A stretch of 48,861 nt of DNA, filler included, from Jimgerdemannia flammicorona (taxonomy: Eukaryota): the NCBI GenBank assembly GCA_003990765.1. It is 2 parts of 2 records of this genome, joined end to end, with 100 filler letters (N's around TTAATTAATTAA, not from the genome) between each part and the next. Parts side by side here need not be neighbours in the genome. Positions count along the whole stretch, not along the records: positions 24,486 to 48,861 come from RBNJ01000983.1; 1 more part is not named here. One strand, 5' to 3'. The notes below the pieces were generated by a model. That model had not been told where the DNA came from. It saw only the letters and a program-made list of their open reading frames with translations, and did no database searches. Positions 20,130-48,861 of the stretch are shown one piece after another (the first letter of the stretch is position 1; each line of letters begins with the position of its first letter). A program made the position numbers and the translations under genes.

Positions 20130-20540
20130 TCATGGATGGACTCCTTTTATGAAGGTTGCTTCAGCTACTTGGTCTCAGATAGCATCAGCATAATCTGCAA
20201 GGATTATCTGATATCAGATTCTGGTGTAGAATGTGTTTGGATCCTCACTCATTCCTTAGTATGTTGTATTGAACTGATCCTTCAGGGCTTGCTTGATCTC
20301 ATCTGTATAGTAGGTGGCTCAGAGCCAGGCCTTCTATGCTGTCAGTATAGTATCATCATTGTTTCCCATATAGGTTGCAGCTATGAATGCTGCTCTTGCT
20401 GGACCTTAGAGACTGAAAAGTATGAGGGCTACTTGCTGTCTTGCTGTCAGGGTTCTTACAGCAGCGTACTGTTTGAAATCATCAATGAAGATAATGACCA
20501 ATTCATCTGAAATATATCTATAGAATACTAGCAGTCTCAT
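20130..20540 (-). pseudogene. Degenerate retrotransposon gag (capsid) fragment in an AT-rich, CpG-poor island (~19390-21325)
   Basis: One frame reads LLVFYR...DELVIIFIDDFKQYAA...LILFSL*GPARAAF...AWL*ATYY...Y*GMSEDPNTFYTRI*...EATFIKGVHP, a Ty3/Gypsy gag pattern (L.G.A; Q...E....FY.R; FI.G..P). Every stop is one transition from CAA, CGA or TGG. Confidence 0.7.
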
Positions 20541-21605
20541 ATCCATCTTGTCTGGATGTTTTGATTTGATTTGTGTAGTTGTTCAGGTGGTAGTAGTTGT
20601 TCATTGTTTAGCTTGAAAAGTGAGAGATTTATCTTGAATCACTAGTCAATAGACACTAAGTTATAATGTAGCAGACACATAACTGAGTAAGTATGTTGGA
20701 TTTCTGTATTTTGAAAATTTGATCTTCTTTGACTCCTCAGAGTCCTTGGAATACAAAGATGGGTGAGTTCAAAGTATATCTGCCCACAGGCTTACTAGTT
20801 CTCTTACTTTCTCTTTACTTTAAACTATTTTGATCTAAGGTTTATTCACTCTGGATACTGGAATATTTATACAAGTTTGCTAGCTATAAGGTGGCTGAGT
20901 TATGAGTCACTTTTCACAAGTATTACATTTTTTGACATCTGCAGAATCTTTAGTAATTGCAAGGATTTTGGCATCTGTAGAATCTTTAGCATTTGCCAAA
21001 GTTTTCTACATTTGCAAAATATAACTGTTATTTATAAGGCTATACTATATTTGGGAATCAGATTCAGGTACTGTGATCAAGTATCTATTCCCCTGATTTA
21101 TATTCCTAATTCAGATCAACTGTTACACTAATTAAAACTAAATTATATATTATTTTAAAGTTTAAATTATAATTATGTTAAATTTTTTTATTATATATTA
21201 TCTTATTATTTAATATAAATAGTAACAATTTTATTTAATTTTTATAAGTTTATTTATATTAATATAATATAAATGACTTTATAAAAATCTAAATTTAAAA
21301 TCATGTTACTTTTTATCTACAGTAGTACATATCTCTCCTCATACACTTTACTTCTTATCTCGGTCGTGTTATGTCTTCATTTTACCAATGCAGTTACTGC
21401 TGAATGTCTGCCCCACAATGGATACCGTTGGTTTGTAACTTCAGCCAATTTTGGGGGTTGATCGTTCAATGAATTCCATGGTCCGATCATCTGTACCACC
21501 GAAAGATCCCTGTCATATCGGGGCATTCCTCAGGCAGATGGTGGTGGGTAGCATTCGGAAATTGAAGTGGTCAGCCTCCCTCTCTCCCTTGTCCTCCTTA
21601 AAACA

Positions 21606-24385: not shown

Positions 24386-24485
24386 NNNNNNNNNNNNNNN
24401 NNNNNNNNNNNNNNNNNNNNNNNNNNNNNTTAATTAATTAANNNNNNNNNNNNNNNNNNNNNNNNNNNNNNNNNNNNNNNNNNNN
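24386..24485. other. Synthetic scaffold gap: 44 N + TTAATTAATTAA + 44 N
   Basis: Exactly 100 nt and symmetric, with a six-frame stop linker at 24430-24441. Preceded by a low-quality poly-T contig end. Confidence 0.95.
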
Positions 24486-27689: not shown

Positions 27690-30600
27690 GGTGATTTTTT
27701 TTATAAAATGAGATATTATTAAATCTGATAAATAGTCAACTTGAAGAATCAGAAAATCCATTTTTTAAGAAAAATGGCATATTTAATAATTAGAAATCAG
27801 CAAAACTTGTCAATCAACGTCAAATAATTAAATCTTCATTTAACCTAATATATAATAAAGCAATAAAAAACCAGTCCTTTTTTTTTTGGACATCCAAATT
27901 GAGAATATGTACAAATCGAAAAAATACAACCATGTGCATACCATATTCCAATGCATGCAGATCAACCTTTCTAACTTCTGGAAGTATTAGATATTTATTT
28001 TCATTGTATCTTGATGAAAAGATATTTAATTTTAATGATCTTAGGCTTGTTAGAAAGCTCTGAATCATGGCTTTCCAGAAAACTTTATGGCTTCAAAATT
28101 GAATATCTTTTCAATAATATATGATAGAAAATGTCAATATAAATTTTGAATTAAGTTCACACTTAATTCAAATAGATAGTAAATTAATATTTAAAACTAA
28201 TAACAATAAAATATTAGAGTGATAGTAAATTAAGTATTTATTTACTTTAATTGAAAATAAAAATAACAAATATTTATTTCAAGATAAGAAGTTATAAAAA
28301 AAAAAAACTAAATAATTATAAATTTTTTTAATTTTTTTTAGATTTGATATAGATGAAAGAGGACAAAGTTTATCACAAGAATCTTTTCTAATATATTCTC
28401 TAATAGAATTATATAAATACTACTGATGTTTTATAGAATACTCTTTAGCTAAAACTTCTTTTAAATCTGTAAGTTATATAGAAAGAATTTCAGTAATAGT
28501 GATATTATTTTTTATAATTCTAATATACTTTTCACTATTACTTTGAGAATGTTCTTTTATAAGAACTTCTCTTATTTTAGCTAAACTAAAATAAAAATAA
28601 TGAAAAGAAAGAAGAGAAGGAAGATTTTTAAAATATTTACTCAAAAATATAGATTATAAATAAAAAAAAAACACATTTCTTATTCTATCTTCTTCAATAG
28701 TAAGTTGAGGAATATTATGATCATTTATAGAAAATAATCTAATCACAGTTGCTAGATCATCAGTTGTATCAATATCAGTAGTTCTAATAATATAAAAATA
28801 ATATATAAATATAATAAATAAATATAATATAAATAATAAATATAAATAAATTAAAACTTACTTGAGAGTTTTTTTAAATAAACTAAAAAAGCTATTTGGA
28901 CTAAATTTTGTATGTCCTGCTACTATAAACTTAAGAGTAATATTGATATAAAGATCAATAATAATTCTCCAATATAAATATTGAATCAATGTATTGTTCT
29001 TATTTTGACTAGTATAATTGTTAGCATGAAGTACTATCTTCTGAGCTCCATAACTTTGTTTTTCAAAATAAAAATGTAGCTATATAAAAATTAATATTAA
29101 TATATATTAGCTTTAAAATTTTAAGTAAAACCTTTTATTTAAACTATATAATTAAATAATAAATATTTGTAATATTATTACATCTGCTCCTTTTCTAATA
29201 AAATATTTTTCTTCATTTAAAAAAATATATTGATATAGAATAGCATCATTATATACTCCAAAGCTTATACTTTTACTAATACTTTGAAATAAATATTACT
29301 CTTAAATATGAAAATAATTTAATAATTAATAAATTATTTAACTAATAATTGAAATTAAAATTAAATATAAAAAAGATTAACTAACCTCTTGTTGTAAAGA
29401 ATACAGAATTTATACTTATTGAGTATAATCAAATAAGAAATATAATTTGATATCTCTAGAATTTGTATCAGTATTAGGTATATTATCATCAAGCTGCTTA
29501 AAAGATTACTTTGTATTATTAATATCTTCTTTATATTGTTCACACTCATCAATTATATATAGATAATAAGTCTGCTATTTTTTTTTCTTATATAATATAT
29601 TCTGATAATGTAAATTTTCCAAATTACCAACTTTTGCAAATCTAGTAAGATTACTTCTTACTATTAAAAACTTAATTTCTCTATAATATCTTTTTCAGAT
29701 AGTATTAAATATTATTTAACTAATATGAAAGTCAGTATTTCTGTTGTTGAATTTTATCAATAATTTTTTTTATTATTGTCTGCAGGTAAGTAGATAATAA
29801 CCTCTTTGTTATATTAAAAATTCTGACCAGATAATAGTAATTCATATTGTTGACTATATTCTAAGATAAAAGTAACTATCTATAAAATTTTAATAAAATA
29901 AGAAAATGAGATAGATGAGATGAAAAATGAACAATAGATGAAAAATAAATAATAGGCAAAAAATAAACAATAGGTAAAAAATAAATGATAGGTAAAAAAC
30001 AAACAATAAATAGAAAATAAATAATAGGTAGAAAACAAATGATGAGTGGAAAATAAATAATAGGTAGAAAATGAATGATGGGTAAAAAATAAATAATGGG
30101 TGGAAAATGAATGATGGATAGAAAACAAATAATGAGTGAAAAATAAATAATAGGTAAAAAATGAATAATGGGTGGAAAATGAACAATGGGTAGAAAATAA
30201 ATAATAAGTAAAAAACAAATGATGAGTGGAAAACAAATAATGAGTAGAAAATAAATAATAGATGAAAAATGAATAATGGGTGAAAAATAAATAATAAGTG
30301 GAAAATAAATAATGGATAAAAAACAAACAATGGGTGAAAAATGAATAATGTGTGAAAAATAAATAATGATAGATAAAAAAATGAATAATAAGTGGAAAAT
30401 AAATAATAGATAGAAAACAAATAATAGGTGGAGAATGAATAATAGGTGGAAAATAATAGATAGAAAATAAACAATGAGTAAAAAATAAATAATAGATAGA
30501 AAATAAATAATAAGTAGAAAATAAATAATAGGTAAAAATAAATAATAGGTGGAAAATAAATAATGAGTAGAAAATGAACAATGGGTGGAAAATTAATAAT

Positions 30601-31594
30601 AGATAGAAAGAATAATGAATGAAAAATGAATAATAGGTGAAAAATAAACAATGGATAAAAAATAAATAATGGTGGATAAAAAAATGAATAATAGATAGAA
30701 AATAAATAATGGATAGAAAACAAATAATAGATAGAGAATAAATAATAAGTAGAAAATGATAAGTAGAAAATAAATGATAGGTGGAAAATAAATAATAGGT
30801 AAAAAATAAATGATAGATGGAAAATGAATGATGGGTGAAAAATAATTAACAAAACAGATAAGATAGATAAGACATTATCTATTTTGTTCCCATTCTTCAA
30901 AAAAATTAAAAAATAACATATTTACCTCAAGAGTTTTCTCAAATATTAGTTATCTGTATCTAATAAGTTCTTTATTTCTATATATTCTTTTTGTAATATC
31001 ATATTCTTTGAAATGTTCTCATACATATATTATATAATCTTTTTTTTTTTTTTTTTTTTTGAAATACTATATATCAATTCATATATATTTTTACATACAG
31101 ATATACTATAAAAGATATAAGTAATATTATCTTATTTTTATTTACCAGTAATGTCAAATTCTTTCAATTGTGAATTTACATCTATAGCTTCTTTTAAAAA
31201 AGTATCTTGAACATCTCTTGACTGAGTAGAGAATTCTTTAAGTCATTTTTCAAAATACTGAAGAGAAAGCTGAGAATATTTTAAACAGTTGTAAGGTTTT
31301 TTGTTACAATATTTCAATTTTTGTAATTTTTAAAGATATATTTCAACTTCTTCTTTCTTCTTTTTCTTCTCTTTTACTTCTTCAATCTGCTTATCTTTAT
31401 TATTATTTTTAGTGATTTGAGTAAGCTTATCTATTATATAAGATATATTATAAAGTAGATGTATTTAGTAAAATCATTGAGGTGATATAATATTTAGTTT
31501 TACATTAGATTTAGTATCAATTTCAGTGATATCAGTATCAATTTCAGTAGTATCAATATTGATTTCAGTAGTATCAGATCAGAACTATCTTTCA
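27690..31594 (-). mobile_element. Degenerate DNA transposon with an intron-containing Sola-like DDD transposase
   Basis: Minus-strand exon ~28861-29079 reads LHANNYTSQNKNNTLIQYLYWR...FIVAGHTKFSPNSFFSLFKK, which is HADNCxGQNKN...GHTKFSPDGFFG after G>A decay. Upstream exons read FGVYND..Q.IFLNE....KGA and TFILEYS...LP. AT-richness begins abruptly right after TTAA (27686-27689), a possible TSD. Subfamily assignment is uncertain. Confidence 0.75.
29920..30850. repeat. AT-rich minisatellite, ~18-bp unit (AAAATRAAYAATRGRTRG), roughly 50 copies, inside a transposase intron
   Basis: Visible periodicity. Bracketed by a minus-strand GT donor (~30924) and TAG acceptor (~29880). It generates the spurious F/Y/I/L-rich ORFs. 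Confidence 0.9.
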
Positions 31595-32855
31595 CTAGTA
31601 ATATTCAGGTGACATAAGACTCAGACAACATTTTCTATAGTATTTTTGGTGAAAGGCAACTAGTAATATAGACAGCAATGAACATACTGGTGAGCATGTC
31701 AGCCAGAGAGGTAGCAGTGCCTTTGACTGGCAGCATGTAGAGAGGAGGAGGGGGGATGGTTTGGGAATACCAGGGCCTTCTATGGCTGGCCATAGCACTG
31801 GTGGAGGAGGAAGAGGTAGATTGAGGCAATGTAAAGTGGAGAAGATGACCTTTGTAGACAAAGTAAAGATGGGGAGAATGGCTTCTGGTCTGGATAGTTG
31901 GCTGGGCCTAGAGAAGGCATCAACAGCTACTGTTGAGAGACAGGGAGGGGTCTCTATAGGAGGATTGGGCAGTAGAGAAGGGGGGAAAGTAGGAGCTGGA
32001 GATATGACTGCTGATGAGGCTGTGACTGGAGATCTAAAAAAAAATCCAGATGTAATAGTGGTTGGTGGTTCAGGATAGAGAGTGGGCATGAGGCCCAGAG
32101 ATCTGGCAGATAGTGTGACAGGTATGGTGTTGGCACTGTTACTTAAGAAATCAAGGTTGGAATTCACTATCACATTGTGTTTTAGGAGCTTAGTAGTGAC
32201 TGCAAGGATGATCTTGGGGCTGGTGGTGTAGGAGACAAAGGGGGTGGCTTTGGTAAAGTTCTTGAAGGGGAAAGAAGGGGTTGAGGTTGGGTTTGAGGAA
32301 GAGAAGGCATTACTGGTAGCTATGGAGAAGAGAGTAATAGTGGGTAGGGTAGTAGTCCCTATAGTCAGGTATATATACTGGAACCCCTGAGTAGTATAGT
32401 TGATGGTGTAGGATCTTCCTATAGTGTTAAGGAAGAGGGCCAGAGAGTTGATTGTGGAAGTGATCAAGGAGTATGGGGAGATTGTGGATATTGGGTTCAA
32501 GGTCTGGGAGAGTATAGAGCTCTAGACTAGTGATATCAACATCTGGATAAGGTTGGCTGGAAAGGAGAATATAGGAAAGACAAGGGACTGGCCAGCAACT
32601 CTGAAGTAGAGACTAGTGGAGTGCAAGATCACACAGATGAAAGGGACTCAGAAAAAGGAGGAGAATTTACTAGAGACTCTTGAGGATCTGGCAGGAGTAG
32701 TTGAGAGGAGAAGATTGACTTGGAAGGAGTATGAAGTTAAGACAGTGGTGGAAATGATAGATGGGAAGAGGATCAGAATGGACTGAGCAATCTGGAAGAA
32801 GATGCAAGGGAGGCAAATCCAGAAGGAGCTGCTAGCAAAGTTGGGTGGTGGTGGA
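31595..32855 (+). mobile_element. 5' part (ORF1 region) of a degenerate L1/Tx1-like LINE, interrupted by LTR element A
   Basis: G/purine-rich strand bias matching 46097-48710. The two parts join across the TSD GTGGA/GTGGG. The 5' boundary is approximate. Confidence 0.6.
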
Positions 32856-34350
32856 TGTAAGTGCACAACCTCTAAGCCACCAAAATTGCATAGCATCCTC
32901 AGAACTAATTTGGAAACCACATGTGAGACTACAAAACAAGAGATCATCTGGTTATATGAAATATGCCAGCAAGCACAAGAACCCACTGCCAAGATACAAG
33001 AATACTAGAAGAAGTACTATAACCATAAGACTGACTCTGAACTGCTATAACTAGTTTGGAGTACTGTATTATTATAAAAGAAAACCAAAAGTACCAAACT
33101 CAAATTGAGACAAGAAGAACTCTATCTCATCTACCAAAAGGTTCATGAACTGCACTTATCAACTCAAGACCAAGATACACTATGACTATACAAGACCTCA
33201 TTACTTAGCAGAAGTAAAATGTATTTGAACAACTCTGTTTGCTCTATCTGTATCACCTTCATTGGAGAGTGATGGACACTTCATCTGAACTCAAGAAAGC
33301 CAACATTATCAAAACCAATCTCAAGCCATCCACATGACAGATATTACTACTAGAAATTACCTCAGATTACAGAAAATATTATTTCCGAGAGGTTCAAACC
33401 CCCAGCTGTGACATTGAGAGCCCTCGCCCTAGACAAGAATGGCCAGTCCTCGCAAATGTACCAGCAGATCAAAAAAAAAGAGAACTAAGACCTGTTATCC
33501 TTGTATAACCACCGCCACCAAGGATAGCCTTAATCTTGCAAGAGATAGAAGTGATGACACCTTTGAAACTGATGATATCAGAAGTCAGAAAACTGCTCAG
33601 ACTTTGCCAGTGATGATGTCATCAATGGTGATGTCATCAAAGACTACCCAGACAGTGCCTAAACCTATAAATAGTCTAGCAGTCATAGTATAGTTAGATT
33701 AGCCTTGTATGATATGACTGTGAACTGACTCAGCAGCCAGACAATCTCTTGATATATCAGATCATACTTATACTACATGACTGCATTCTGACTCAGCAAA
33801 GTACTTAGTACTACATCCATATCTAGCATAGTCCAGATAGCCCCTCACTAGTATAAATACCCCCTCCCCCAGACCTCAGAATCTCAGACTTGAAAGATTT
33901 GAACAATTTGAACTCAACTCCTAAGTACTTTCCCACAATATCCCTTTATACAACTACTCCTAGTATAGCAATATTATGAATAGCGAATAAACCTATTTAA
34001 TAACCCGCAAACTACTCTTAAGTAAATCCGCTCCCCATTAGGTCCCACTCCTAACTCCATCACAAAATTCCCTAATTGGGTATTGTCAGCAGCAATACAC
34101 TGATTCAACTAAGCTGGTCTTAGTTTCTTGAACTTCCTGAAATATAGAAAATCCTGAATATCCAGAACTAGTCCGAAAAAGGACTTTGGTTGAGATGTCA
34201 ACCTGAACTTGAAATCAATAAGCATAGAGGATATACTCCATATGAAATTGATCTTAACCATAAGAAAACAGTTTTCCAGAATATCCAGAACTTTCAGAAA
34301 ACCCTTCCAGAATTATGTAATGGCTATCCTAAAAAAGTAACTCTCTAACA
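32856..34350 (+). repeat. 5' LTR of element A (1495 bp)
   Basis: TGTAAG...CTAACA, colinear with the split 3' LTR. TATAAA at 33852. Confidence 0.93.
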
Positions 34351-34479
34351 ACTTAGTAGCAGCAGTTTACAATCCAAATCTGCTTCAAGATGCTTCCTCA
34401 CCCTGCTACAAACCTCTCTGCGAATTCCTACAAGTTGGTATAGAGCCCAACCTCTGAACTGGAATTTATCCTGAACCAT

Positions 34480-36310
34480 CTGACAATCTGGAGAGAATTG
34501 AACCTGACGTACAAGGACAATTTGACCTCCACACCTGTAATAAGTGAGACAAACTTCATTTAAAAAAAGTAGTACTCTAGTTAAACTAGCAAATAGGTGA
34601 AACTCTATTCACTGAACTCCTTGCACTATACCCAGCAAATCAAGACAAAGAAGGTCTTATTGAAGCCTTCTTTACTCTTCTCAACAAGAGTTTTGTTAGC
34701 TCTACAAATCCAAGCAACCTAGGACAACCAGCAGCAGTCTTTCTAGCTTTAGTACCTCATGAAGCCCAAGTCTCTATAGCCAAGTGGCTCAACTCTACCA
34801 ACTTTCACTGTACCAGGACCAAGACCATGTTATACTATTGATTCCAGAACAGCAAGGCCTGTCATATTCTTAAAGAAGAAGTAAGAGAAACCCTTCATCA
34901 ACTATCTGACTCCAAACCTGAAGCAGGCCCTACTACAGCCCTATCTGAATCTGAAACCAATACTGAACCTAAACTTGACTTTGAATTAAGTCCATCTGAA
35001 ATCAGATATACAACTGATTCCATCTACTTTAACGTTGAGCAAACCCAATTATATAGAGACCAAACCAAAGAAGAGGAGGAGTATCTCAGTAAATTTAATC
35101 CCGGATACACCACTGAAGGAGATGCACTTCTATCAGAACAGAATACACCTATACAGCAACAAACAGCTATCTATCAAGCCCTTACTCCAGATCCATAACT
35201 ACTACTCCAGCAACTTACACAGACCCAAAGAACCCCATCATACTCTGCACTAGTACCTCAAGTAGTACCAGTAACACTACTACCAGCAGTCCAACTGCCT
35301 CCAGTAAATAATATGGCAAACCAACAGATTCTAGACCTCACAGCCCAAGTAGCCATAATGGCAGCAACCATTACTATCTTAGCTGAACAGACCTGACCTA
35401 CTAAAAATCTGAGCCTACCTACCTTCAATAGTACTATACAAGAAGTCCAAAGCTTTATTAGTGTAGTTGACACCAACTTCAAAGCCAATCAATAGACCAA
35501 TGTGCGAGTTTCTGACTACATTCTGACAAACAATCAAGACCACACTCTGGAACAACTCTTTGCTACCACTATAGTCTATGTCCGCCAAGTTGTTACATTC
35601 TTCCGAGGACCTACCAAAGAATGGTGGCAAACCCTTCCTGAAAAACCCCTCACATGGGATACCTGACCTGCAGTAGTTACTCAGAATGCAGCAAACAATG
35701 TCCAGGATACAGAGCTCATCCTGCAGCCCCTGGACTCAAACAACTCATGATTGCTCAATACTGCAGTAAAATCATGATTGCTTAATCTTGAGTAAAACTC
35801 CGCAACCTCAAATTTGATATACATGGCAAAGAAGAATTCGAAACCTTCTATACAAAACTTGAGTCACTTCTGAACACTGTTGGCCTAGGATACATTGTCA
35901 ACGATGAAGCACAAAATGGTACAAGGGCAGACCAATTATTCGATGTACTGTCTGAATGACTTACTAGAAAAATCCAAGAACAAGGCCACTTAGTTGGTTG
36001 TGATCACCAACAATGGTGCCTGGCAAAAATCAAGACTATGGTCAAGTGAATCCTAACAGCTGGACCAATTCTGTCCCGAAGACAATTTAACAACAAGGAA
36101 AAGACTTGGACCAAGAAAGAAGAACCCAAGCATGAAACATCCCGAGCTCCCTCTATATCCACCTCTTGAATACCTAGAAATCATGAACCCACTCAGCCAA
36201 GCACCTTCAAAAAACTCACTGAAGGTGAAAGGAATGAACTTCGAAGAAGTGGAGCATGCTTCTATTGCTGAAAGACAGGATACATGGCCAGTGCCTGCCC
36301 TAACCAAAAA
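34480..36310 (+). pseudogene. gag of element A with N-terminal extension and zinc knuckle
   Basis: LSLPTFNS..EVQSFISVVD, LHSSEDLP/KEWWQ region, and knuckle CFYC*KTGYMASACP (CX2CX4HX4C with H>Y) at 36257-36300. Many stops and some frameshifts. Confidence 0.75.
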
Positions 36311-36376
36311 CCCCAAACAGCAACATGAGCAACTGTTACCACTCTGCACCACCTCAACAACCTGATCACCAGGATA

Positions 36377-36785
36377 CTAGACTTTGTCAAGTTAAGACAA
36401 ACTGCTAAGGCCCCAACCAAAGGAAGTCAAAAAGCAGCTGGATATGACCTGTATACAGCTGAAGAAGCTACAGTTTCCAACTGAGAAGTTAAACAAGTCT
36501 ACACAGGAATCAGCATCCAAATTCCTGAAGGATATATTGGAAGAATATGTTCACAGCAGCCTAGCATTAAAAGAACTCTCAGTAGAAGGAGGAGTTATCG
36601 ATGAAGATTACACAGGCGAAATCATTATCCTCATTTGAAACTACAGTTGGACACCCTTCAAGATCCCTATAGGTTTCTACATAGCTCAGATTCTATTTGA
36701 AAAAATCGAGTCAACTCTGATAGTCAAGGAAGTCCCTGAACTACTGCCCACTATCCGAGGATCCAAAGGATTTGGCTCATCGAAC
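36377..36785 (+). pseudogene. Trimeric dUTPase domain of element A
   Basis: All five motifs in order: AAGYDL, GRI..SSLA, GGVIDEDYTGEI, IAQIL, RGSKGFGSS. One frameshift near 36555 and a few stops. Confidence 0.93.
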
Positions 36786-36999
36786 AAGGCCCCAGCCCAA
36801 CCTACCATGAGCAAAGAAGAACAATTCTACAAGAAGATTGAAGACGGATATATACCAAGTGGCCAATGCCCTCATGGCATTGAAATGTACTCTTTCTGAA
36901 TAATTGATGATTGCTTCTCATGTATCAATGAACTGGCTCAAAGAAGAACCAACAGAAGGAAAGGTCCTATAACTGGAATCACTACCATTGGATCAGACA

Positions 37000-37335
37000 A
37001 ACTACTTACACTTAAAGCTTTTGTCAACCAAGCACCTGTCAAGATTATGATAGATAGTAGTGCCTCAGGCAACTTCATCAATAAAGAAACAGCCAACAGA
37101 CTCAAGGTCTTCACCTCTCCAGTACAGCAAACTCAAGCAGTTGCTACAGCTGATGGAACCTCACATGTTATTAGCAAAGAAGTCTGCAACCTACTCTTCC
37201 GAATTGGTGACTACCGAGTACATGTTACCCTTCAGATCGTACCACTTCCGGATAACAAAATCATCCTTGGAACCCCATGGTTGAAACAAGAGAACCCCAT
37301 GATTAATTGGGTAAACCATTCTCTGACCATCAAGA
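37000..37335 (+). pseudogene. Retropepsin aspartic protease of element A
   Basis: VKIMIDSSASGNFI (DSGA with G>A), V.TADG and IILGTPWLKQENPMINW. Confidence 0.9.
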
Positions 37336-37735
37336 AAGGATGCCACAACTTCAAACTGTAAGGCGAAAAGGATCCACTTAATTCTAGTGACCCTGAACCA
37401 AAGATCACCCACATTAATAAGCTACAACTTAAGAAATTGGCCAAGAAATGCCCTCTCTTACACCATCCATCCATCCAAAGGAGAACCCAAGAACTCTGAA
37501 GAAGATTTTTCCAAAGTTGACAGCCATATCAGACCACTACTTCAGAAAGCCCAAGACATATTTCTGAACTGAACCACAGAACTACCTGTATCTATCATTA
37601 TTAATGACTAAGAAGAATACAAAGTTGAACAAATCCTCAACAAACACAGCCACAAGAACCATCCAAATGATACAACAACACTAGAACAAATTAGAAGGCC
37701 CTGACAAGGATATCAAAAACTAAGAAGAGGAGAGT

Positions 37736-38803
37736 TATAAGCACACAACCTCTAAGCCACCAAAATCACATGGCATCCTCAGAACTAATTTGGAAACTAT
37801 ATGCAAGACTACAAAACAAGAGATCATCTGGTTACATGAAATATGCCAGCAAGCACAAGAACCCACTGCCAAGATACAAGAATACTAGAAGAAGTACTAT
37901 AACTATAAGACTGACTCTGAACTGCTAAACTAGTTTGGTGTACTATACTATTACAAAAGGAAACCAAAAGTACCAAACTCAAATTGAGACAAAAAGAACC
38001 CTATCTCATCTACCAAAAGGTTCACGAACTGTACTTATCAACTCAAGATCAAGATATACTATAACTATACAAGACCTCATTACTTAGCAGAAGCAAAACA
38101 CATTTGAACAACTCTGTTCACTCTATCTGTATCACCTCCATTAGAGAGTAACAGATGCTTCATCTGAACTCAAGAAAGCTGACATTGTCGAAACCAATTT
38201 CAAGCCATCTACTTGATATATTACTACTAGAAATTGCCTTGGATTATAGAAAATATCATTTCTGAGAGGTTCGAACCCCCAGCCATGACATTGGGAGCCC
38301 TCGCCCTAGACAAGAATGGCCAGTCCTCACAAATGTGCCAGCAGACTAAAAAAAAAGAGAACCAAGACTTATTATCTTTATACAAGAGATAAAAGTAATG
38401 ACACCTTTGAAACTGATGATATCAGAAGTCAGAAAACTGCTCAGACTTTGCCAGCGATGATGTCATCAATGGTGATGTCATCGAAGACTACCCAGACAGT
38501 GCCTAAACCTATAAATAGCCTAGCAGTCATAGTATAGTTAGATTAGCTTTGTATGATATGACTGTGAACTGACTCAGTAGCCAGACAATCTCTTGATATG
38601 TCAGATCACACTTATACTATATGACTGCATTTCAACTCAGCAAAGCACTTAGTGCTACATCCATATCTAGTATAGTCCAGATAGCCCCTCACTAGTATAA
38701 ATACCCCCTCTCCCAGACCTCAGAATCTCAGACTTGAAAGACTTGAACAATCTGAACTCAACTCCTGAGCACTTTCTCACAATATCTCTTTATACAACTA
38801 CTC
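37736..38803 (+). repeat. 3' LTR of element A, left part
   Basis: Matches 32856-~33959 with a ~35-bp deletion. Terminal TG mutated to TA. Confidence 0.92.
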
Positions 38804-39567
38804 TATAATAACTCTCACTTCTACCCCTCTCTTATCCTTTGGATAATTAGGGAAGTGGACTATTACTTAGGGACTTGGTACACAATGTGTATCAAGAAGC
38901 CTTCAGTTTGAGGAAGCACTCACTTATAAGTAGTTGTAGTGGCAGTGCCTTATCTTTCAAAGGTCTTTCTCTTGTGCCCTATTTCAAGAGTCTTGTTCTT
39001 TGCTATGCACAGACTGAATTCGCCTTGGAATTCAGATTCAATGGGTTTACTTAAGTCTTTGGGGATTTATATACTGGTCTCAGTTCTGGCAGAAGTTAGC
39101 TAGGCTTCTGGAGTTTAGTCAGAAACACTAGAGTTACTTAGATGTCATTACTAAGACTCAGAGGAATATATATGTATGGGGGGAACTTGATTTTTGTATC
39201 AAAGACTGAACTAAAACTGCTTTATTTTGGATAAAAACTGGGGGGTATTTATACAAGTTGGTCCACGATTTCTGACTAAGTATGAGTGACTAATTTGGTA
39301 ACTATAATGAGGTTTGTGATGGCAACCTTTGTTAGGTGGTTTTTGGTAAAGAATATCTTTATGATTAGGACCTCAATTACTAGGCAATAATCAGCAGCTG
39401 TAGCAACTGTTGCTGTGGCGCCGATTGTTAGGGATAAGCTGGATATCGTTTTCCGTGTCATTTCGTATCATTCGTTATTCATATGCTGCACTCGATTGTA
39501 TGATGATATCATCACCGGGTCACGTGATCATTCGTCTCATCGCATCCCATCTGTTTGTTCTATTACA
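38804..39567 (-). repeat. 3' LTR of element B
   Basis: Colinear with 44937-45700 and the same length. Confidence 0.95.
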
Positions 39568-39578
39568 TTCTTCCCCCC

Positions 39579-40409
39579 TTAGAAATTAACGTCCTTATTG
39601 ATTGAGAAATTGAGAACCAGGGGAGAGAAAGGTGGGGAATCCTCCTCAGGGTTATTACCATCTTCTTCAGGGGCAGGGGGGGTGGTGGTTGCAGATGGCT
39701 CACCATCCAGGATGGAGAAGTCAATGAGGTCTACAAATGGTTCTTGCATTGGAATAGGTGCTGGTATAAGGGTTCTCCATCTGATGCGGTTGGGGCCATC
39801 CAAATAGGGCTCTTGATCTTTATGCCTGGGAATATCCATTTGGATAGGTGGTCCTTCAAAGAGGTCAGAGAGACCTTGGAGCCATTGGTCAGAGTTGTCA
39901 TTCAGGAGGGGGCTCCAGTAGGTTTTACAGTTAGTAGACTTGAGGGCAATCCAGGAGTTGGCTTCTTGGGTGACCTTGACTTCTAGGACATCGACCTCAG
40001 GGAAAGAGAGGTTCTGGAAGTCCTTCAGTTATATGTAGTTGAGGTTGGGGATTATGAAAGGTGTATGGCGCATGATTTGATGGACCTTCTTGGAAAATCT
40101 TTGCTCGTGCCTATCTAGATGGGTCCAATCAGAGACTTGGTCCATGGGCAGGTCCTTTGCCTATTGGAGGAGTTGATGGCCAATCTCGTATTCATGTCAG
40201 ATCTCTAGGCAGCTGGTGGCAAGGTAGGCTCTTTCAATGACTTCATGGCAGTTGAGGACATAGTGTCCTAGGTCCTGACTGGAGAGGTTAAGGGCCTCTG
40301 AGCGGCGGTTCCTTCCTTGGATGGCAACCTGGATGTGTCCAAAGAGGCGGTCAACCTGGCTTGAGAGGGGCTGGCTACAGTGGGCAGTTTGGCGGCAGGT
40401 GGCAGGCAT
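39579..40409 (-). pseudogene. Extra 3' ORF (~276 codons) of element B, unknown function
   Basis: ORF-track pieces 40197..40409 and 39579..39839 share a frame. Between them are only three stops (TGA, TAG, TAA, each one C>T from CGA, CAG, CAA) and no frameshift. Confidence 0.7.
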
Positions 40410-41105
40410 TCTTGTCTTGTCTTTTCTTTGTGAGGAAAGGGGGATGAGAGTTGCAGGGTATTCTTATCTTGGGTGTTTATACTTATTCACCTGTCTGATG
40501 TGACCTTCCTTTGGTCATGCTTTCTGGCAAAATATATAACCTGTGCTGTAAGTGGAGTATGTGCTGGTCACATGAGAAAATCCTGATTTCAAAGATCTCA
40601 TCATCTGTAGTTGTGGTTACACAGGGTTAACAGGTCTTGGTCCACTTTTTTTTTGTCTGGTTGGCACATTTGCAAGGACTGGTCATCCTTGTCTAGGGCG
40701 AGGGCTCTCATTGTCATAGCTGGGGGTTCAAACCTCTTGGAAATAGACTTTTCTTATAATCTGAGGCAATTCCTAGTAACAATATCTATCACATGGATGG
40801 ACTTAGACTGGTTTCGACATTGTCGGCTTTCCTAAGTTTCACATGAAGCGTCTGTCATCATCCAGCAGAGATAATACAGATGGCATGAAATAGAGTTGTT
40901 CAAATGCATTTTGCTATACTGTACTAGATTATTCTTTTGTTCAGAATATCTTTTTGTTGGTTATCCATAGTGTTCCTTTTTTCACAATGTTTGGTATTAT
41001 ATGTTTCCAGATAAAAATATGTGGTATCCTTCTACTCGCTGTGTGCTCCTATACTTAGAGCTGTAGTTCCTTCCTTTGCTGGGGGGTGAGTGTTTCTATG
41101 TAGTT

Positions 41106-43864
41106 CTAGAGGACTTTGTGTGTATTCTTTAGGGCTTCTTCTTTTTTCCAGGTGGCATCATGGGTGGGGTAACCCTTCCACTTGATCAGGAAAAAGCGCT
41201 TGACTGTTTTAGGATATTTGTGGACCTTGTGGTCAAGTACTTCCTCAATTTCGAATTCCTCATGATCATTGATCCTAATTAGAGGTGGTGGTGGAACTGT
41301 ATGCTTGGGGAATGAGTTCTCATAGTAGTCCACCAATTGGCTGATATGGAATACTGGGTGTACTCAGATATTGTGGGGAAGTTGCAACTTGTAGTTAACT
41401 TCACTGATTTTTTCCATAATCTTGTATGGTCCAATTCTTCTAGCATGGAGTTTCTTGGCTGGTTGTTGTATCAGAGTGTCTGGGTGGAGGTGGTCTGTTC
41501 TAAGCATGACTATATCACCAATATTGTAGGAGGCTTCTCTTCACTTCAAGTTCGTGTACTTGGTCTGGTAGTCTTGTGCTTCTATGAGAGCATCTCTTGT
41601 CATTCGCATAAGATCAGAAATGGTCTTGATCAGATCTTAGGCTGCTGGGACTGCTGATTTCGCGGTAGTACTTGGGGTTCTTGGGTGTTGACTATGGTTC
41701 AGGAAGAATAGAGTCTTCTTTGTAGAGGTTTGCTGACTGTTGTTGTAGGCAAACTTGGCATGGGCTAGGTACTTGTCCTAATCATTTTGCTTGTAACAGC
41801 AGAAGATACTAAGCATCTGTTTGAGAGTCCTGTTGGTTCACTCGGTTTGACTATCAGTCTGAGGGTGGTAGGCAGTAGAGAACTTCAGCTTGGTTCCATG
41901 GAGGGAGAAAAATGCCTTTCAGAAATTGCTTGTGAACTTGGCATCTCGGTCAGATACAATGGTGCTAGGCATGCCATGTAGCCTGAATACTTGGTTGAGA
42001 AAGATCTTGGCAATCTCTGGTGCTGTAGCAGTGGTCTTAGTGAGTGCAAAATGGGCTTGTTTACTTAAATGGTCCACGAATACCACGATGGCATCTCATC
42101 CTGCCTTGGTCTTGGGGAGTTGGATAATGAAGTCTATCGCAATCTGGTCCCAATTGTGACTTGGGATAGGTAAGGGTTGCAGGAGTCTTGCTGGTAGCTT
42201 GTTACTACTTTTGAACCTTTGGCACATCTCACATGAGGCCATAAAGTCTTTGATATTCTTGGTCATCTTTGGCCAGTAGAACTCTCTTGAGAGGAGGTTG
42301 TAGGTCTTTTCAAAACCAAAGTGTCCAGCTGCAGGAGTATCATGGAGTTCCTACATGATTTTGAGTCGCAGAGTATCATTGTTGGGTACAACTACTCTGT
42401 CATGGTCCCTGTAGATAAGTCCATTACAGTAGGTGAATCTCTTGGCCATTTGCCTCATGGGTTCTGGGACCTCAGCCTCTGGGTCTTCACAGAATTGAAG
42501 GAAATTCATCAGGGGGCTGTCTTGCTGGTAGCCATCCTTGATCATTTGGGTAAGGTCTCCAATTACTTCGACCATAAAGACAAGTTCATCTTCCATGTAC
42601 CTGGAGAAACCATCAGCCACATGGTTGGTTTTGCCTGAGATATACTTGATTTCCATATCAAAGTTGGCAATAATTTTCATCTAGTAGACTTTTCTGTGGG
42701 TCAGCATAGGCTGTGTGTGAATATACCACAGTGCATGGTGATCAGTGTAGGCTACAAATGGCTGTCCTAGGAGGAAATGGTGCTATTCCTGGAGTGCAGT
42801 GACAATAGCCAGGAGTTCCTTCTCATGGGTAGTATACTGAGTCTCAGCTGGCTTGAGCTTCTGTGAAAGGTAGGCCACTGGGCGGTCTTCTTGGCTGAGT
42901 ACTACTCCAATAGCAATGTCAGAGGCATCTGTGGTCAGAGTGAATGGTCTGGTAGGATCAGGTGCAATTAGCACTGGGGTCTTGATAAGGAGTCTCTTGA
43001 GATGGTCTATAGCCAGGGTGCATTCGGGGGTCCATTCAGCTTTGATGTTCACTCCTTTATGGGCCAGGCTGGTCAATGGGGCTACAATAGCAGAGTATCC
43101 TTGGATAAACCTTCGGTAATAACCAGCAATACCCAGAAAGTACTGGAGTAGCTTGAGGGTAGTAGGGATAGGGATATCCTTGAGAGCTGATACTTTCCGG
43201 GGGTCCATATTGATACCTTCAGCAGAGATGATATGTCCCAGGTATTCAATCTGGTCTTGGTATAACTTACACTTGCTCATCTTGGCATAGAGTTGGTGTT
43301 CTCACAGAAGAGTCAGTACTTGTCTAAGGTGGGTATAGTATAGCTCTACTGTCTCGCTGTAGATTAGTATATCATCAATATACACAAGGACACAGATGTT
43401 GAGGAGTGGTCCAAAGATGTCTTTCATCAGATACTGGAATATTGCTGGTGCATTGGTTAATCCAAAAGGTATGACACAGAACTGGTAGTGTCCAAACCAT
43501 GTTCGGAAAGCTGTCTTCTCAATGTCCTTCTCATCAATGAGAATCTGGTAGTAGCTATTTTGCAAATCCAGTAAAGAAAAGGTCTTGGCCTTGAAGATTT
43601 GGTGTAGCAACTCATCAATCCTAGGCAAGGCATATCGATTCTTGATAGTGATCTTGTTGAGGGCTCTGTAGTCAATACACATTCGCAGAGAGCCATCCTT
43701 CTTCTTGACAAATAGAACGGGGGCTCCAAACAGAGAGTGGCTGGGTTCAATGTATCCTTGGGCCAGTAGTTTGGTCAATTCATCCTTGAGGGTCTTGAGC
43801 TCAGGTTGAGCCAGTTGATAGATACTCTTGTATAGGGGTTCAGATCCTGGAATAAGATTAATTC
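41106..43864 (-). pseudogene. pol of element B: RT, RNase H, integrase, chromodomain
   Basis: [62 protein letters not shown]; integrase HHCC/core and GPYKI; chromodomain EEFEIEEVL...FLIKWKGYPTHDATW. Confidence 0.95.
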
Positions 43865-44835
43865 CATTGGTTTGCTCAGTAGCCTATATCAACTGCATTG
43901 ATGAAGTTTTCGATGTCACTGTTTTTTCCACTGAATGTTGGAATTCGCAAGGTCTTGGTTGGTTTGTTCTGTTCAGCAATTTGGTCTACTATTCCTGCTA
44001 GTGCTGCTAGCTGGGTGGTCAGTGCTGCAATGTTGACATCTACCATTGTATTGACTAGTGGTAGTGGGCCTATTGGGGTAGATTCTCCTGAAGATTGTTC
44101 TGCTTGGTGGGGTTGTGGTGCTATATGACTTGGGGTTACTTGGTTTCTGGATATTAAGTCAAAGAGTCCTGTGAGAGAGGGTAAACCAAACCGCTGTATA
44201 TGTGGCTGGATTGGTTCTGGGGTCTGATCTTCTTGACCTGTAATCCCTTGGTAAATTCCTAGGCCTGCTGTTCCTTGTTGACTATCATCAGACTGGTAAC
44301 CTGTAGAGTCTTCATCTGACTCCCTTCTCTGATGAGATAGTGTATTCTCATACTGACTAGGTTCTTCAAAGAGGATATCAGTCTCTGGCTAGGTAGATGG
44401 ACCTGCTTCTTGTTCAGCAGTAGGGGATGGGTGGCCTGCTTGCTCGTTCTCGTACCTAGTTATGGCAGAGGCATAGTATACAACTAGCCTGTAGTAGAGG
44501 GAGGTCTTGGTTGGTATATGATGATACCTGTCAGAGGCAATCCACTCGGCAGCTACTTCTCTTGCAGCAGGGGGTGTAATATAATCTAAAAAATCCTGGG
44601 TGGCTGCAGCAGTAGATTCTGGGGTCCTAGTGGTTCCAATGTGTCCTTGGAGGAGTTCGTAGAACCTACGGCAGCTAACAATATTCCTAAGTCCTGGGTG
44701 GTATGTTCTAAAGGTCTGGTATAAATTCTTATAAGCCTGGTCAATGACAAGCTGGTGGGTCTCTGTGTCTGTGGTTTCCTGGTACCACCTGGTCCTAATG
44801 GCAAGGGCTTCTCTGGCTTTGGTTTGAGGATCCAC
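43865..44835 (-). pseudogene. Truncated gag of element B (N-terminal extension plus start of capsid)
   Basis: 148-aa ORF 44389..44835 followed by ...[28 protein letters not shown], homologous to A's LSLPTFNS...FISVVDTNFKANQ. It then joins abruptly to the pre-RT sequence INLIPGSEP. Confidence 0.75.
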
Positions 44836-44936
44836 AGTTGATTCTGGGAGTTACTCCTGTCCAAGGTTGGTCTTGTTCCAACTTCAGGAGTGTGTTCTTT
44901 GGTGCCTTCTTGGCTGGTAATCTGCTGCTACCAAGT

Positions 44937-45700
44937 TGTAATAACTCTCACTTCTACCCCTCTCTTATCCTTTGGATAATTAGAGAAGTGGACTATTACT
45001 TAGGGACTTGGTACATAATATATACCAAGAAGCCTTTAGTTTGAGGAAGCGCTCACTTATAAATAGTTGTAGTGGCAGTGCCTTATCTTTCAAAGGTCTT
45101 TCTCTTATGCCCTATTTTGAGGGTCTTGTTCTTTGCTGTGTACAGACTGAATTTGCCTTGGAATTTAGGTTCAATGGGTTTACTTAAGTCTTTGGGGATT
45201 TATATACTGGTCTCAGTTCTGGCAGAAGTTAGCTAGGCTTCTGGAATTTAGTCAGAAACACTAGAGTCACTTAGATGTCATTACTAAGACTCAGGGGAAT
45301 GTGTGTATGTGGGGGGGACTTGATTCTTGTATCAAGGACTGAACTAAAACTGCTTTATTTCAGATGGAAACTGGGGGATATTTATACAAGTTGGTCTGTG
45401 ATTTCTGACTAAGTATGAGTGACTAATTTGGTAACTATAATGAGGTTTATGATCACAACCTTTGTCAGGTGGTTTTTGGTAAAGAATATCTTTGTGATCA
45501 GGACCTCAATTACTAGGCAATGATCAGTAGCTATGGCAACTGTTGCTGTGGCACCAATTGTTAGAGATAAGCTGGATATCATTTTCTGTGTCATTTCACA
45601 TCATTCATTATTCATATGCCGCACTTGATCATATGATGATGTCATCGCCGAGTCATGTGATCATTCATCTCATCACGTCCCATCTGTTTGTTTTATTACA
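44937..45700 (-). repeat. 5' LTR of element B
   Basis: TGTAATA...TATTACA termini, adjacent to the PBS. Confidence 0.95.
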
Positions 45701-45705
45701 TACTT

Positions 45706-46096
45706 CTAATATAGCAATATCATGAATAGCAAATAAACTTATTTAATAACCCACAAACCACTCTTAAGTAAATCCATTCCCTGTTAGGTCTCACTCCTAA
45801 CTCCATCACAAAATTTCCTAATTGGGTATTGTCTGCAGCGATATGCCAATTCAACTAAGCTGGTCTTAGTTTCTTGAACTTCCTGAAATATGGAAAATCC
45901 TGAACATCTAGAACTAGTCCGAAAAAGGACTTTGGTTGAGACATCAACCCAAACTTGAAATCAATAAGTATAGAGGACATACTCCATATGAAATTGATCT
46001 TGACCATAAGAAAACAGTCTTCCAGAATATCCAGAACTTCCAAAAAACCCTTCCAGAACTACGTAACAGCTACCCTAAAAAAGTAACCCTCTAACA
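45706..46096 (+). repeat. 3' LTR of element A, right part
   Basis: Matches 33960-34350 and ends CTAACA before the TSD. Confidence 0.92.
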
Positions 46097-48710
46097 GTGG
46101 GGCTGACAGTAGTATAAAGGAAGAGGGAGCAGGATTGTGAGAGAGTGCCTGGGTAGGGGAATACAGGATTGCCCAAGGTGGGGCCCAGGGTGGACCAAGA
46201 GAGGAGGGACAGAGTGGTATAGAGGCAGATATAGAAATGAGTAAAGAAGTACACTCTCAGTATAGTGTCCTGGGTGGGGTAGGGGATGAGGAGGAACTAT
46301 TGAATATACTAGAAGAGGAGTGGGATGAGTCAGTAAGGAGGAGTGCTTTGGTGGACCCAGAGGTGGAGGTTGATAGAGTTGCCCAGGGTATAGCAGAGGT
46401 AGTAAATAAGGAGAAGTAGCTGTAGAAGACTCTAGAGGGGGTGGCAGTAGAGAAACTGGAGGGAGAGAACTTCTAGGTTATGGAAGAGAGGTATTGGGAG
46501 GAAATTCTTCATGGTAAGAAGATACTGAGAAAGGTTAGAAATGAGATCCTGGCAGTCTTCTTGGAATTAGTTGAATATCAAGTGGATGATCAGAGAGAGG
46601 AGGAACTTCAGATAATTGTGAACAAATAGGTAGCATACTTATGGAGATTGAGGAAGAGGTTAGAGAAGTGGAGAGTGGTCTGTGCAGATTATTAGGTAGA
46701 GATGGAAGTGGTGGATGGGGTAGAATATCAAGAAATCTTAGAGACATTAGATACTCAGGCTGTAGTAGAAGGTGACTTGGAAGCAGAGCAGTACTTGGAT
46801 CTGGCTGGGGATGAGATGAGTATAGAATACTAGGCTGAGTTCTCAAATTCAAACATTATTCAATATGAATAGTACAACTAGAATATTCTCTTTGAATATG
46901 AATGAGTTGAGGGGGGTAGCTCAGTGAAAGTATATATTTGGTTAGCTAAAGAGATTGAATATAGATCTTTTCTTACTGCAGAATATATATTATGAGGTAG
47001 ATGTGGACTTACAGGATTAGACTAGGAAATGGGAGGGGGGTAGTAGTGTGGACTGGGCAGGTGGGTATTCTAGTTTAAAAGAGAATGGTGGACATTGGAG
47101 ATATTGGACATTGGGGAAGTCAGTTAGTGTGAGAAGTGTAGAAGAGGTCTAGATAGAGCCTTTTGATAGTTGGGTTATATTACTGTCCAGTAGAGAGGGG
47201 GGAATGGGTAGATTGGATCAGAAATTTGAAAGAGGCTAGTATTATGGGTGAGGTAGAGATTGACTGCTGGGGGGGTGACTTCAACATGATATGGGATAAT
47301 GTGATAGATAGGACTAATAGAGAGAGAGGAATGAGGAGCAGAAGTAACAGGTTGAATGATTGGATGGAGATAGAGAGGTTGAGTTCTTTAGTTGATTTGG
47401 GGAGACAGTTTTGGAAAGATCATCAAATTTACACTCACTGGGCAGTAGGGCTGGGATCCAGGATTGACTGAGTATTGATGGCAGAGTGCTGGAGAGTGGA
47501 TGTCTGGGCTATACTGGAAGTGGTTTGGTGTCCATGGTCTGATCACTAGAGTTTGTTAGGGGGGGAGAGGTTTGGAGGAAGTGGAAATGGGCCTGGACAT
47601 TGGTGACTGAATTCCTCTTTATTGAAGGATGGTGCTTTATGGACAGACTGGGAGGAGGAGGTTATTGGGAAAATTGATATGTGGTGGAAATAGGGCCTGA
47701 TGATTGGAGATTGCTAGAGGAGGCTGAAAGTGAGTGCTCAGGAGTACTAGAGGGAAGCAGGGAAAGGAAGGAGTATTTAGTGGCAGCAGAGAGTGTTATG
47801 GGCTTCATAGAGATTGATAGCACTTCTGGAGAGATGGGTGGAGATGTTAGAGGATTGAAAGGTAGCTGACTGACATATTGTACAGATTCAAAAGGAAGTT
47901 GAGGAGCTTAAGGAAGTGTTACAAATGGAGGAAGAGATTAAGTTAAAGGAAATAGTGGCAAGACTGAGGTAGCAAGGATTGGAGGAGGGAGAGAGACCCA
48001 CTAGGTTTTTATCACAGTTGCTACAAGTGTAGAGAACTAAACAGCAGTGGAATGGGCTATCAAATGAGAATAGAGAGATGGTGGTAGGAACTCTGGTAAT
48101 TTTGGGATTGCTAAGGACCCACTGGGAGAATTTATGGAGTAAGGAAGAAGGAGGTGAGAATGCCTCAAACATTGAAAGATAGTTGGAGAATTGGCATCCA
48201 GACTCAGCAATGGGCCTGGGGACTCTAGGAAACCCAGTGCAGAGAGAGGAAATTTGCAAGGTCTTGGCTTCAACAAGCAAGGGGATGGCTCTGAGAGAGG
48301 ATAGACTTCTTTGAAATTTTTGGAAGAAGATAGCTGAGGTGGCAGTGGTATTAGAAGAGATGACAGAGATGTGTGGTGAGGTTCTTCAGTCTGGAACTTG
48401 GATTGGAGGCCAGTGCTTAGGACTGGTCTCCTTGTTCTATAAGGATAAGAGAAGAAGAGAAGATTGGAAGAACTGGTGACTAATCATACTCCTCAATATA
48501 GACTGCAAACTGGTGACAAAGGTCTTGGTGACTAGACTGTAGAGAATTACTCAGCAAGTACTGGGAGTAGAGCAAAGAGGGTTTGTTGGTAGTCAGTTGA
48601 TCTAAGATAAGACAGCTTGAGCCCATGGAGTGATTGAAGGAGCCCAGGCTGCTGGGGTTAATGGTAGATTAGTGTTTCTAGATCAGGAGAAGGTATATAA
48701 CAGAGTGAGG
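46097..48710 (+). mobile_element. Degenerate L1/Tx1-clade LINE: end of ORF1, APE endonuclease and N-terminal RT, 3'-truncated
   Basis: IFSLNMNEL, LFLLQ, GGDFN, YTHW...SRID, PWSDH, GPGHW*LNSSLL, EGERPTRFL; RT motifs KNW*LIILLNIDCKLVTKVL, EQRGFV, LVFLDQEKVYNRV. Stops at a (TA)n tract near 48712. Confidence 0.88.
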
Positions 48711-48861
48711 AATATATATATATATATATATAAGTGAGGGCCAAATATGGGCCAATGTAATAAAATTTTTACTTTATAAATTTATTATAATTTAAATATA
48801 AATATTATTAAATTGATATTTTAACTAATAATAAAGTAATCATATACCTTTTAGAAAATAT

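Follow-up and report, generated by a model that had tools for sequence, protein, structure and literature searches.

The stretch of DNA analysed here (the window; 48,861 nt, with all positions counted along its whole length) closes with a nest of dead transposons. The nest starts at position 27,690, within the part of the window that comes from RBNJ01000983.1 (position 24,486 onward), and runs to the window end. Its sequences have undergone hypermutation of the C>T type (G>A on the opposite strand) that extends beyond CpG dinucleotides, and we are highly confident that this effect exists, that it has a direction and that it is limited to the transposon nest. The character of the sequence switches abruptly at 27,690, both in composition and in the positions of CpG. 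Positions 1-27,689 have 46% GC and an observed/expected CpG ratio of 1.04 (1501/1445), while from 27,690 onward this ratio is 0.00-0.32 in every element; the near-loss of CpG reported from about 27.7 kb by the initial annotation of this DNA is thus correct. CpG of normal density ends at 27,646, followed by two stragglers at 27,818 and 27,917. The interval 27,918-33,385 is free of CpG, the next one being found at 33,386, and none occurs past 46,062. Observed and expected counts are 0/140 for both parts of the long interspersed nuclear element (LINE) described below, 17/99 and 25/138 for the long terminal repeats (LTRs) and the interior of element X, and 18/56 and 45/264 for those of element Y. 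All mutated DNA in the nest is either transposon or satellite.

The nest was resolved by self-BLAST, alignments, exact element ends and domain searches (Table 1). Element X sits in the LINE, which we call LINE O, and element Y sits in the 3′ LTR of X. Counted with Y, the whole of X spans 32,856-46,096 and has LTRs of about 1.5 kb. Its interior matched dUTPase (E = 1.6e-14) and the protease families gag-asp_proteas, RVP_2 and Asp_protease_2 (E from 3.6e-10 to 4.5e-8) in Pfam, which detected no reverse transcriptase (RT) or integrase there; X may be non-autonomous. Y has everything that defines a Ty3/gypsy chromovirus, namely RT, RNase H, integrase, a C-terminal chromodomain, LTRs and a target duplication (Pfam: RVT_1, E = 6.5e-35; RNase H; integrase H2C2; rve; chromo, E = 3.3e-9). 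A protease was not found in Y. Its 5-bp target duplications (38,799-38,803 and 45,701-45,705) differ by one C/T mismatch, and its pol contains 12 in-frame stops within residues 1-930 of the read-through translation. The 3′ part of LINE O is interrupted by 30 in-frame stops in 606 codons and gave weak Pfam matches to Exo_endo_phos and RVT_1. A homologue search with it retrieved 1,875 sequences at E ≤ 0.001, of which those of full length were only 21-29% identical. A Pfam search of the 5′ part of LINE O was empty.

The AT-rich block at the left border of the nest reads as what heavy mutation has left of a DNA-transposon-like element. The DUF7869 match in it (PF25273) has an E value of 7.8e-6 and, with 26.0 bits, lies just at the curated threshold of 26, and DUF7869 clusters make up 26 of the 30 protein-atlas matches of the relic (best score 0.94). 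No Pfam match was obtained in the six frames of the block outside 28.8-29.1 kb. Both decayed catalytic motifs that had been attributed to G>A change could be located: NNYxS lies on the minus strand near 29,022, within the DUF7869 relic, and DSS in place of DSG lies at about 37,053, in the protease of X.

Table 1. Features of the window with their positions and strands.
Feature	Position	Strand	Remarks
Kelch-repeat open reading frame	18,068-18,904	-	Pfam domains
AT-rich block, probable relic of a DNA-transposon-like element	27,690-31,589	-	20% GC (DUF7869 relic and satellite 18-20%); sharp left border; CpG 2 observed, 38 expected
DUF7869 relic	28,861-29,079	-	PF25273; 73-aa open stretch with decayed motif NNYxS
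18-nt satellite	29,881-30,870	+	About 52 units; Tandem Repeats Finder period 18, 51.7 copies
LINE O, 5′ part	31,590-32,855	+	Severed from the 3′ part by X; composition matches the 3′ part; no CpG
X, 5′ LTR	32,856-34,350	+	1,495 bp; TG start, CA end; 5-bp target duplication 32,851-32,855
X, interior	34,351-37,735	+	dUTPase and aspartic protease (DSS, DSG expected); polypurine tract just before 37,736
X, 3′ LTR, first part	37,736-38,803	+	TA start (TG in the 5′ copy); interrupted by Y
Y, Ty3/gypsy chromovirus	38,804-45,700	-	LTRs of 764 bp, 38,804-39,567 and 44,937-45,700
X, 3′ LTR, remainder	45,706-46,096	+	Resumes after Y; X target duplication 46,097-46,101, one G/A difference from its partner
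LINE O, 3′ part	46,097-48,712	+	Endonuclease (GDFN) and start of RT; no CpG; followed by AT-rich simple sequence to the window end

The LTR pairs of X and Y were compared in three alignments with 2,192 aligned sites, without polarising the differences. They yielded 180 transitions and only 4 transversions. CpG decay in one copy (CG/TG) accounted for 28 transitions, and 40 more were of the CA/TG class, forming 20 reciprocal doublets in which an ancestral CpG had mutated in both copies. The non-CpG transitions numbered about 112 and included CA/TA (67), CC/TC (22) and CT/TT (18). Per site, the copies differed at 68 of 74 CpG (92%), 67 of 297 CpA (23%), 24 of 158 CpC (15%) and 20 of 316 CpT (6%) positions. 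By Fisher tests, CpT was separated from CpA (p = 6.5e-9) and from CpC (p = 0.0024), with p = 0.066 for CpA against CpC. Three CpGs survive in both copies and a further 28 in a single copy, which corresponds to a survival of about 18% of ancestral CpGs per copy; the estimated load is about 0.9 changes per CpG cytosine versus about 0.13 per CpA cytosine, a roughly sevenfold difference. The non-CpG excess was judged against transversions as an internal clock that approximates the background rate of unique DNA. This clock puts the background divergence of the LTR copies at about 0.2%, so nearly all of the LTR transitions are in excess. The smaller observations made on these repeats by the initial annotation hold as well: the first 140 nt or so of the Y LTR pair contain 10 differences (the terminal one included), all of them transitions; the X 3′ LTR (37,736) and the Y copy at 38,804 start with TA, their partners with TG; and a reciprocal TG/CA doublet is present near the start of the X LTR pair.

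Ordinary decay of methylated CpG, combined with neutral drift at all other sites, would account for CpG being by far the hottest context and for the excess of TpG and CpA, a pattern known for fungal transposons. Nevertheless, we regard it as very improbable that this is the whole explanation, since the chance of meeting at most 4 transversions among 115 non-CpG differences is 2.6e-15 with a transition:transversion ratio of 2:1 and still 2.2e-7 with a ratio of 4:1. The decay seen in Basidiomycota, Rhizophagus and vertebrates shares with our nest the transposon-confined loss of CpG, the TpG/CpA excess and the retention of CpG in genes, but it leaves the non-CpG transitions unexplained, as well as the TA dinucleotides at former CpG sites that are described next.

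The satellite was tabulated by column, using 38 clean units of the 44 segments recovered. Not one of the 304 cells in its eight A/T columns is changed, and the columns derived from G or C are 29-100% mutated, so that the copies vary at former G or C columns only. Two column pairs read TG/CA/TA in 10/6/22 and 7/7/24 units, respectively, and never CG. In these pairs C always precedes A and G always follows T, which indicates that they were once CpG. The TA majority at these former CpGs requires a second change at CpA, and thus CpG chemistry alone is insufficient. Five other G columns are 29-58% A, with one transversion in total. The TA share (58-63%) matches the G>A share at the other columns in CpA context (55-58%), and the share in CpC context is lower (29-45%). 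The context order of the LTRs therefore recurs in the satellite at a much higher dose.

The direction of change was read from the pol of Y, translated through its stops (each stop entered as an undefined residue) and aligned to 45 homologues of 43-50% identity. A column was taken as conserved when at least 80% of the homologues had the same residue there, which was the case for 358 columns. The Y pol departs from the consensus at 66 of them: 23 departures are explained by G>A, 7 by C>T, none by A>G or T>C, 20 by transversions and 10 by multi-step changes, and 6 are ambiguous (R to TGA in four of these six). A large share of the transversions amounts to conservative replacement (Y>F or L>I, for example) and may represent family differences older than the insertion. 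All 30 unambiguously polarised transitions are thus G:C>A:T (P about 7e-10), while the opportunity for nonsynonymous transitions in unchanged conserved codons was 280 for G:C>A:T versus 286 for A:T>G:C (49.5%). Four of the 12 stops stand on W columns (W in 43-45 of the 45 homologues) and three on R columns (R in 41-45 of 45), in line with the proposed derivation of stops from codons open to C>T or G>A; the other five fall on mixed columns.

LINE O was also compared with 12 short pieces from the same LINE family, to which it is 42-68% identical. The single-step differences comprised 54 G>A, 11 C>T, 19 A>G and 5 T>C changes besides 46 transversions, and W is the residue aligned with ten distinct stops. 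A similar attempt on the dUTPase/protease of X with 7 homologues was left uncounted owing to a poor alignment, in which identity was limited to 45 of the 118 conserved columns and the protease was paired with RT motifs. Its figures were G>A 10, C>T 1, A>G 2, T>C 1, transversions 23 and multi-step changes 35. Overall, the central claim of the initial annotation, that the changes reach beyond CpG, is upheld by the non-CpG transitions of the LTRs, by the 30:0 polarity at conserved pol residues and by the TA majority in the satellite. Decay of CpG alone is rejected on the grounds of the satellite columns, the LTR spectrum, the pol polarity taken together with the opportunity count, and the transversion test.

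The target duplications of X and of Y, which are host-derived, each carry one transition, and mutation must therefore have followed integration. Differences between LTR copies, read on the coding strand, are C/T rather than G/A in a ratio of 70:45 in X and 43:21 in Y, a majority that matches the C excess of that strand (its GC skew). When all changes are taken as C>T, the mutated copies split 40:42, 30:34 and 18:16 in the three LTR alignments. A runs test on the LTR changes revealed no clustering by copy or by strand. The LTRs are no more mutated than the interiors, since their CpG density is not lower: about 5.3-6 CpGs per kb in the X LTR copies versus 6.8 in the X interior, and 6.5 and 17 in the Y LTR copies versus 8.8 in the Y interior. 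The change acted on double-stranded genomic DNA, on both strands and on both copies equally. An even, run-free, post-integration pattern of this kind speaks neither for editing of complementary DNA (cDNA) nor for one processive event coordinated by strand, but against both, and it fits gradual, site-wise deamination.

CpG decay is locally uneven between the Y LTR copies. The copy at 38,804 has 13 CpGs and the other has 5, and a cluster of 11 CpGs at 39,419-39,541 is nearly gone at 45,552-45,676.

These data also bear on a methylation-independent cytidine deaminase (AID/APOBEC-like or similar) acting on nuclear transposon DNA or on cDNA before integration. The pure G:C>A:T spectrum would suit such an enzyme, and so would the coding-strand prevalence of G>A over C>T in Y pol (23:7). 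However, editing of cDNA predicts G>A on one strand only, whereas the LTRs show both types of change with a C/T majority on the coding strand, the opposite of that prediction, and the host-derived target duplications are mutated too. Furthermore, near-total loss of CpG with an excess of TpG and CpA is the mark of methylated CpG. Hence, we judge this explanation improbable.

Repeat-induced point mutation (RIP), as known from Neurospora and other Pezizomycotina, offers a closer comparison. Near-exclusive C>T/G>A change on both strands and in both copies of repeated DNA, CpA as the favoured non-CpG context, transposon genes filled with stops, and AT-rich relics that abut normal DNA sharply are common to RIP and to our nest. 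The differences are that CpG is mutated here about seven times more per cytosine than CpA, whereas canonical RIP prefers CpA over CpG, that no strand-coordinated runs occur, that the host is probably not an ascomycete, and that the classic indices disagree. The usual thresholds are 0.89 for TpA/ApT and 1.03 for the substrate index, (CpA+TpG)/(ApC+GpT). TpA/ApT is raised in the elements, to 0.84-1.01 compared with 0.73 in unique DNA, but the substrate index is not lowered, being 1.19-1.38 compared with 1.15. The index check that had been proposed therefore came out as RIP-like on one measure only, and "RIP-like" is a fair description of the footprint without making it canonical RIP. The spectrum combines the signature of CpG methylation decay with a RIP-like non-CpG C>T component favouring CpA. 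Another fungal pattern of this sort is the TpCpG hypermutation of transposons in Pucciniomycotina, which is likewise RIP-like, centred on CpG and found outside the ascomycetes. Unlike that pattern, the present one shows no preference for T before CpG (ACG 9, GCG 8, TCG 8, CCG 3) and has a strong non-CpG component.

Could the nest nonetheless be the product of true homology-triggered RIP, in which a premeiotic machinery mutates both copies of duplicated DNA, here with an unusual preference of CpG over CpA? The restriction to C>T-type changes in both copies and on both strands agrees with this, as do the sharp border at 27,690 and the fact that no other sequence is as mutated as the tandem satellite. 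The LTR divergences of X (about 8.3%) and Y (about 8.6%), equal despite the nesting, could mean episodes. On the other hand, the runs test found no strand- or copy-coordinated runs, the locally duplicated LTRs keep as many CpGs per kb as the interiors, and the substrate index stays above the RIP threshold. In addition, a tandem repeat of 76-80% identity at 19,712-20,123, inside a long open reading frame (ORF), retains its CpG (31 observed versus 18.5 expected at 19,501-20,000), from which it follows that tandem repetition alone is no magnet for the mutator. Finally, the enzyme RID is reported from Pezizomycotina only, according to a passage in PMC9963178. Taken together, these points make homology-triggered RIP unlikely.

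The nearest working analogue is the Dim2-dependent mutator of Zymoseptoria tritici. Passages of PMC8016269 relate that in this fungus Dim2 drives mitotic C>T change at the CpA sites of methylated transposons, with over 95% of mutations being C>T, over 98% of these falling at CA, and CpG being spared. Both systems share C>T change in transposons (methylated ones in Zymoseptoria) with CpA as the top non-CpG context, and a gradual accumulation without a sexual cycle would suit the even, run-free pattern of the nest; the differences are that CpG is the hottest context here and that CpC and CpT are mutated as well. For Endogonales and Glomeromycota, the PNAS paper PMC9963178 reports homologues of the DIM-2-like type; one in Phycomyces is mentioned by a 2026 review (PMC13297926), and CpG methylation of transposons is described for Rhizophagus in a passage of PMC8647823.

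The data show the spectrum, its direction, context order and symmetry, the timing after integration and the restriction to the transposon block. What we infer from all this concerns methylation, the enzyme and the timing within the life cycle, and we lean, with moderate confidence, towards cytosine methylation of transposon heterochromatin in all contexts, followed by deamination. In this scenario, a CpG maintenance enzyme and a DIM-2-like enzyme of the DNMT1 family would methylate the heterochromatin of transposons densely and in every sequence context. Deamination of 5-methylcytosine, spontaneous or helped by an enzyme, would come next, and C>T changes would accrue on both strands after integration, site by site over time. 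Such a process would produce a graded preference, CpG far ahead of CpA, then CpC, then CpT, and would leave CpG in the neighbouring unique DNA intact. The outcome would be approximately CpG decay plus the Dim2-dependent "mitotic RIP" of Zymoseptoria, unlike one-round premeiotic RIP. The initial annotation had offered either a repeat-directed mutator or heavy non-CpG methylation with deamination; the even spread of changes, the lack of runs and the CpG density of the LTRs lean to the latter without settling the choice.

Relative to transversions, transitions at CpG and CpA reach a ratio of hundreds here, well above the tens of passive 5-methylcytosine decay in mammals, which hints at enzyme-assisted deamination. 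More tentatively, it is possible that a fungus of the Endogonales possesses an enzyme-driven, transposon-directed cytosine mutator, that is, a RIP-like defence by a DIM-2-like enzyme of the DNMT1 family instead of merely passive decay of 5-methylcytosine.

Several observations weigh against all-context methylation followed by deamination. Firstly, the excess of G>A over C>T on the coding strand of Y pol is significant (p = 0.0014) and hints at a strand effect. It falls to 23:14 if C>T is credited with all seven rows compatible with it, namely the six ambiguous rows (R>W, R>stop and L>F) and an additional L>F row, and we treat the asymmetry as a minor residual oddity. Secondly, CpG is the hottest context here and yet is spared by the Dim2 mutator of Zymoseptoria, so that two processes have to be assumed. 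Thirdly, LINE O, which predates X and Y, retains no CpG, yet it keeps 44.6% GC, which is a poor fit to a steady non-CpG mutator unless the dose differs between elements. For the same reason, the claim that AT-richness peaks in the outermost element holds for the block with the DUF7869 relic and the satellite but fails for LINE O, which also lies outside X and Y. Fourthly, the LTR divergences of X and Y are equal although Y is the younger insertion, and this could equally reflect episodic action.

Lastly, the placement of the host comes from one gene. Among 34 ORFs in 1-27.6 kb, Pfam domains were found in one, the Kelch-repeat ORF, and in none of the other 33. This ORF has four homologues in a database of 5.8 billion proteins, and the two that are named both belong to Jimgerdemannia flammicorona (Endogonales), with 56% and 42% identity, which supports the earlier guess of a Mucoromycota host; a fungus related to Jimgerdemannia is the probable source. 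A protein-atlas search with the same ORF returned Kelch clusters of mixed taxa, uninformative for placement, and a homologue search with a second ORF (2,638-3,432) returned nothing. The Kelch ORF apparently belongs to a lineage-restricted gene family.

An artefact of sequencing, DNA damage or assembly deserves consideration as well, since two runs of N occur at 24.4 kb and nested repeats could in principle be chimeric joins. Yet the effect ends sharply at 27,690, the unique part of the window is normal, and the element ends and target duplications are coherent. Moreover, two public sequencing runs of one organism contain 27-32% of the words of 10-19 kb, with no RNA run listed among the matches, and provided contigs that cover parts of the elements. 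These were compared with the window over 31.6-48.9 kb as totals by change type. The family copies in the two runs differed from the window by 433 transitions and 51 transversions and by 328 transitions and 49 transversions, respectively, i.e., mostly by transitions too. An artefact is, in our opinion, scarcely credible.

In the same contigs, other copies of the Y LTR from both runs carry additional CpG-rich letters at 39,467-39,477. Less mutated copies of the Y family must therefore exist elsewhere.

As for the literature, RIP signatures are stated to be absent from Mucoromycotina and Gigaspora in a passage of PMC8647823 that cites Venice 2020, and a statement in PMC12543289 holds RIP-like k-mer signatures in repeats to be unique to Ascomycota. 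Our search on RIP in Mucoromycota, Glomeromycota and Endogonales covered a literature that did not include Chang et al. 2019, on the genomes of Endogonaceae, and for Endogonales it brought up no account of a footprint like this. What is new here is that C>T change beyond CpG, clean and polarised, is seen in a genome that probably belongs to Endogonales, the order for which PMC9963178 reports DIM-2-like genes. Screens based on indices or k-mers could miss a footprint of this type, because CpG decay replenishes TpG and CpA at the rate at which they are lost to the second step.

If the pattern proves to be genome-wide, it would tie the DIM-2-like enzymes of early-diverging fungi to mutagenic genome defence and would bear on the tolerance of transposons in repeat-rich genomes of 96-240 Mb (sizes as given in a passage of PMC7928374). 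Should an enzyme-driven mutator indeed be at work, mutagenic defence by DIM-2-like enzymes would either predate Dikarya or have arisen twice, and it would have been overlooked because its preference for CpG over CpA defeats the classic RIP indices.

Some further features of the window should be mentioned. The coding strand of LINE O is rich in G (32-35%) and poor in C (10-12%). Strand-biased mutation was considered as the cause and dropped, since intact fragments of this LINE family found in other sources use G-rich codons just as heavily; with proteins of these fragments being likewise rich in G, W, E and R, the bias looks like a family trait and not a mutational skew. X and Y share a primer-binding-like 15-mer adjoining the 5′ LTR, and positions 33,216-33,512 of the X LTR are 81% identical over 300 nt to 40,613-40,912 in the Y interior; X and Y are related families. 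Two 44-nt runs of N lie within 24,386-24,485, adjoining long runs of T. Inside the CpG-normal part of the window there is also a small CpG-free islet at 20,470-21,350 (0 CpG observed and 16 expected, 27% GC, TpA/ApT 1.01), which is probably another mutated transposon scrap.

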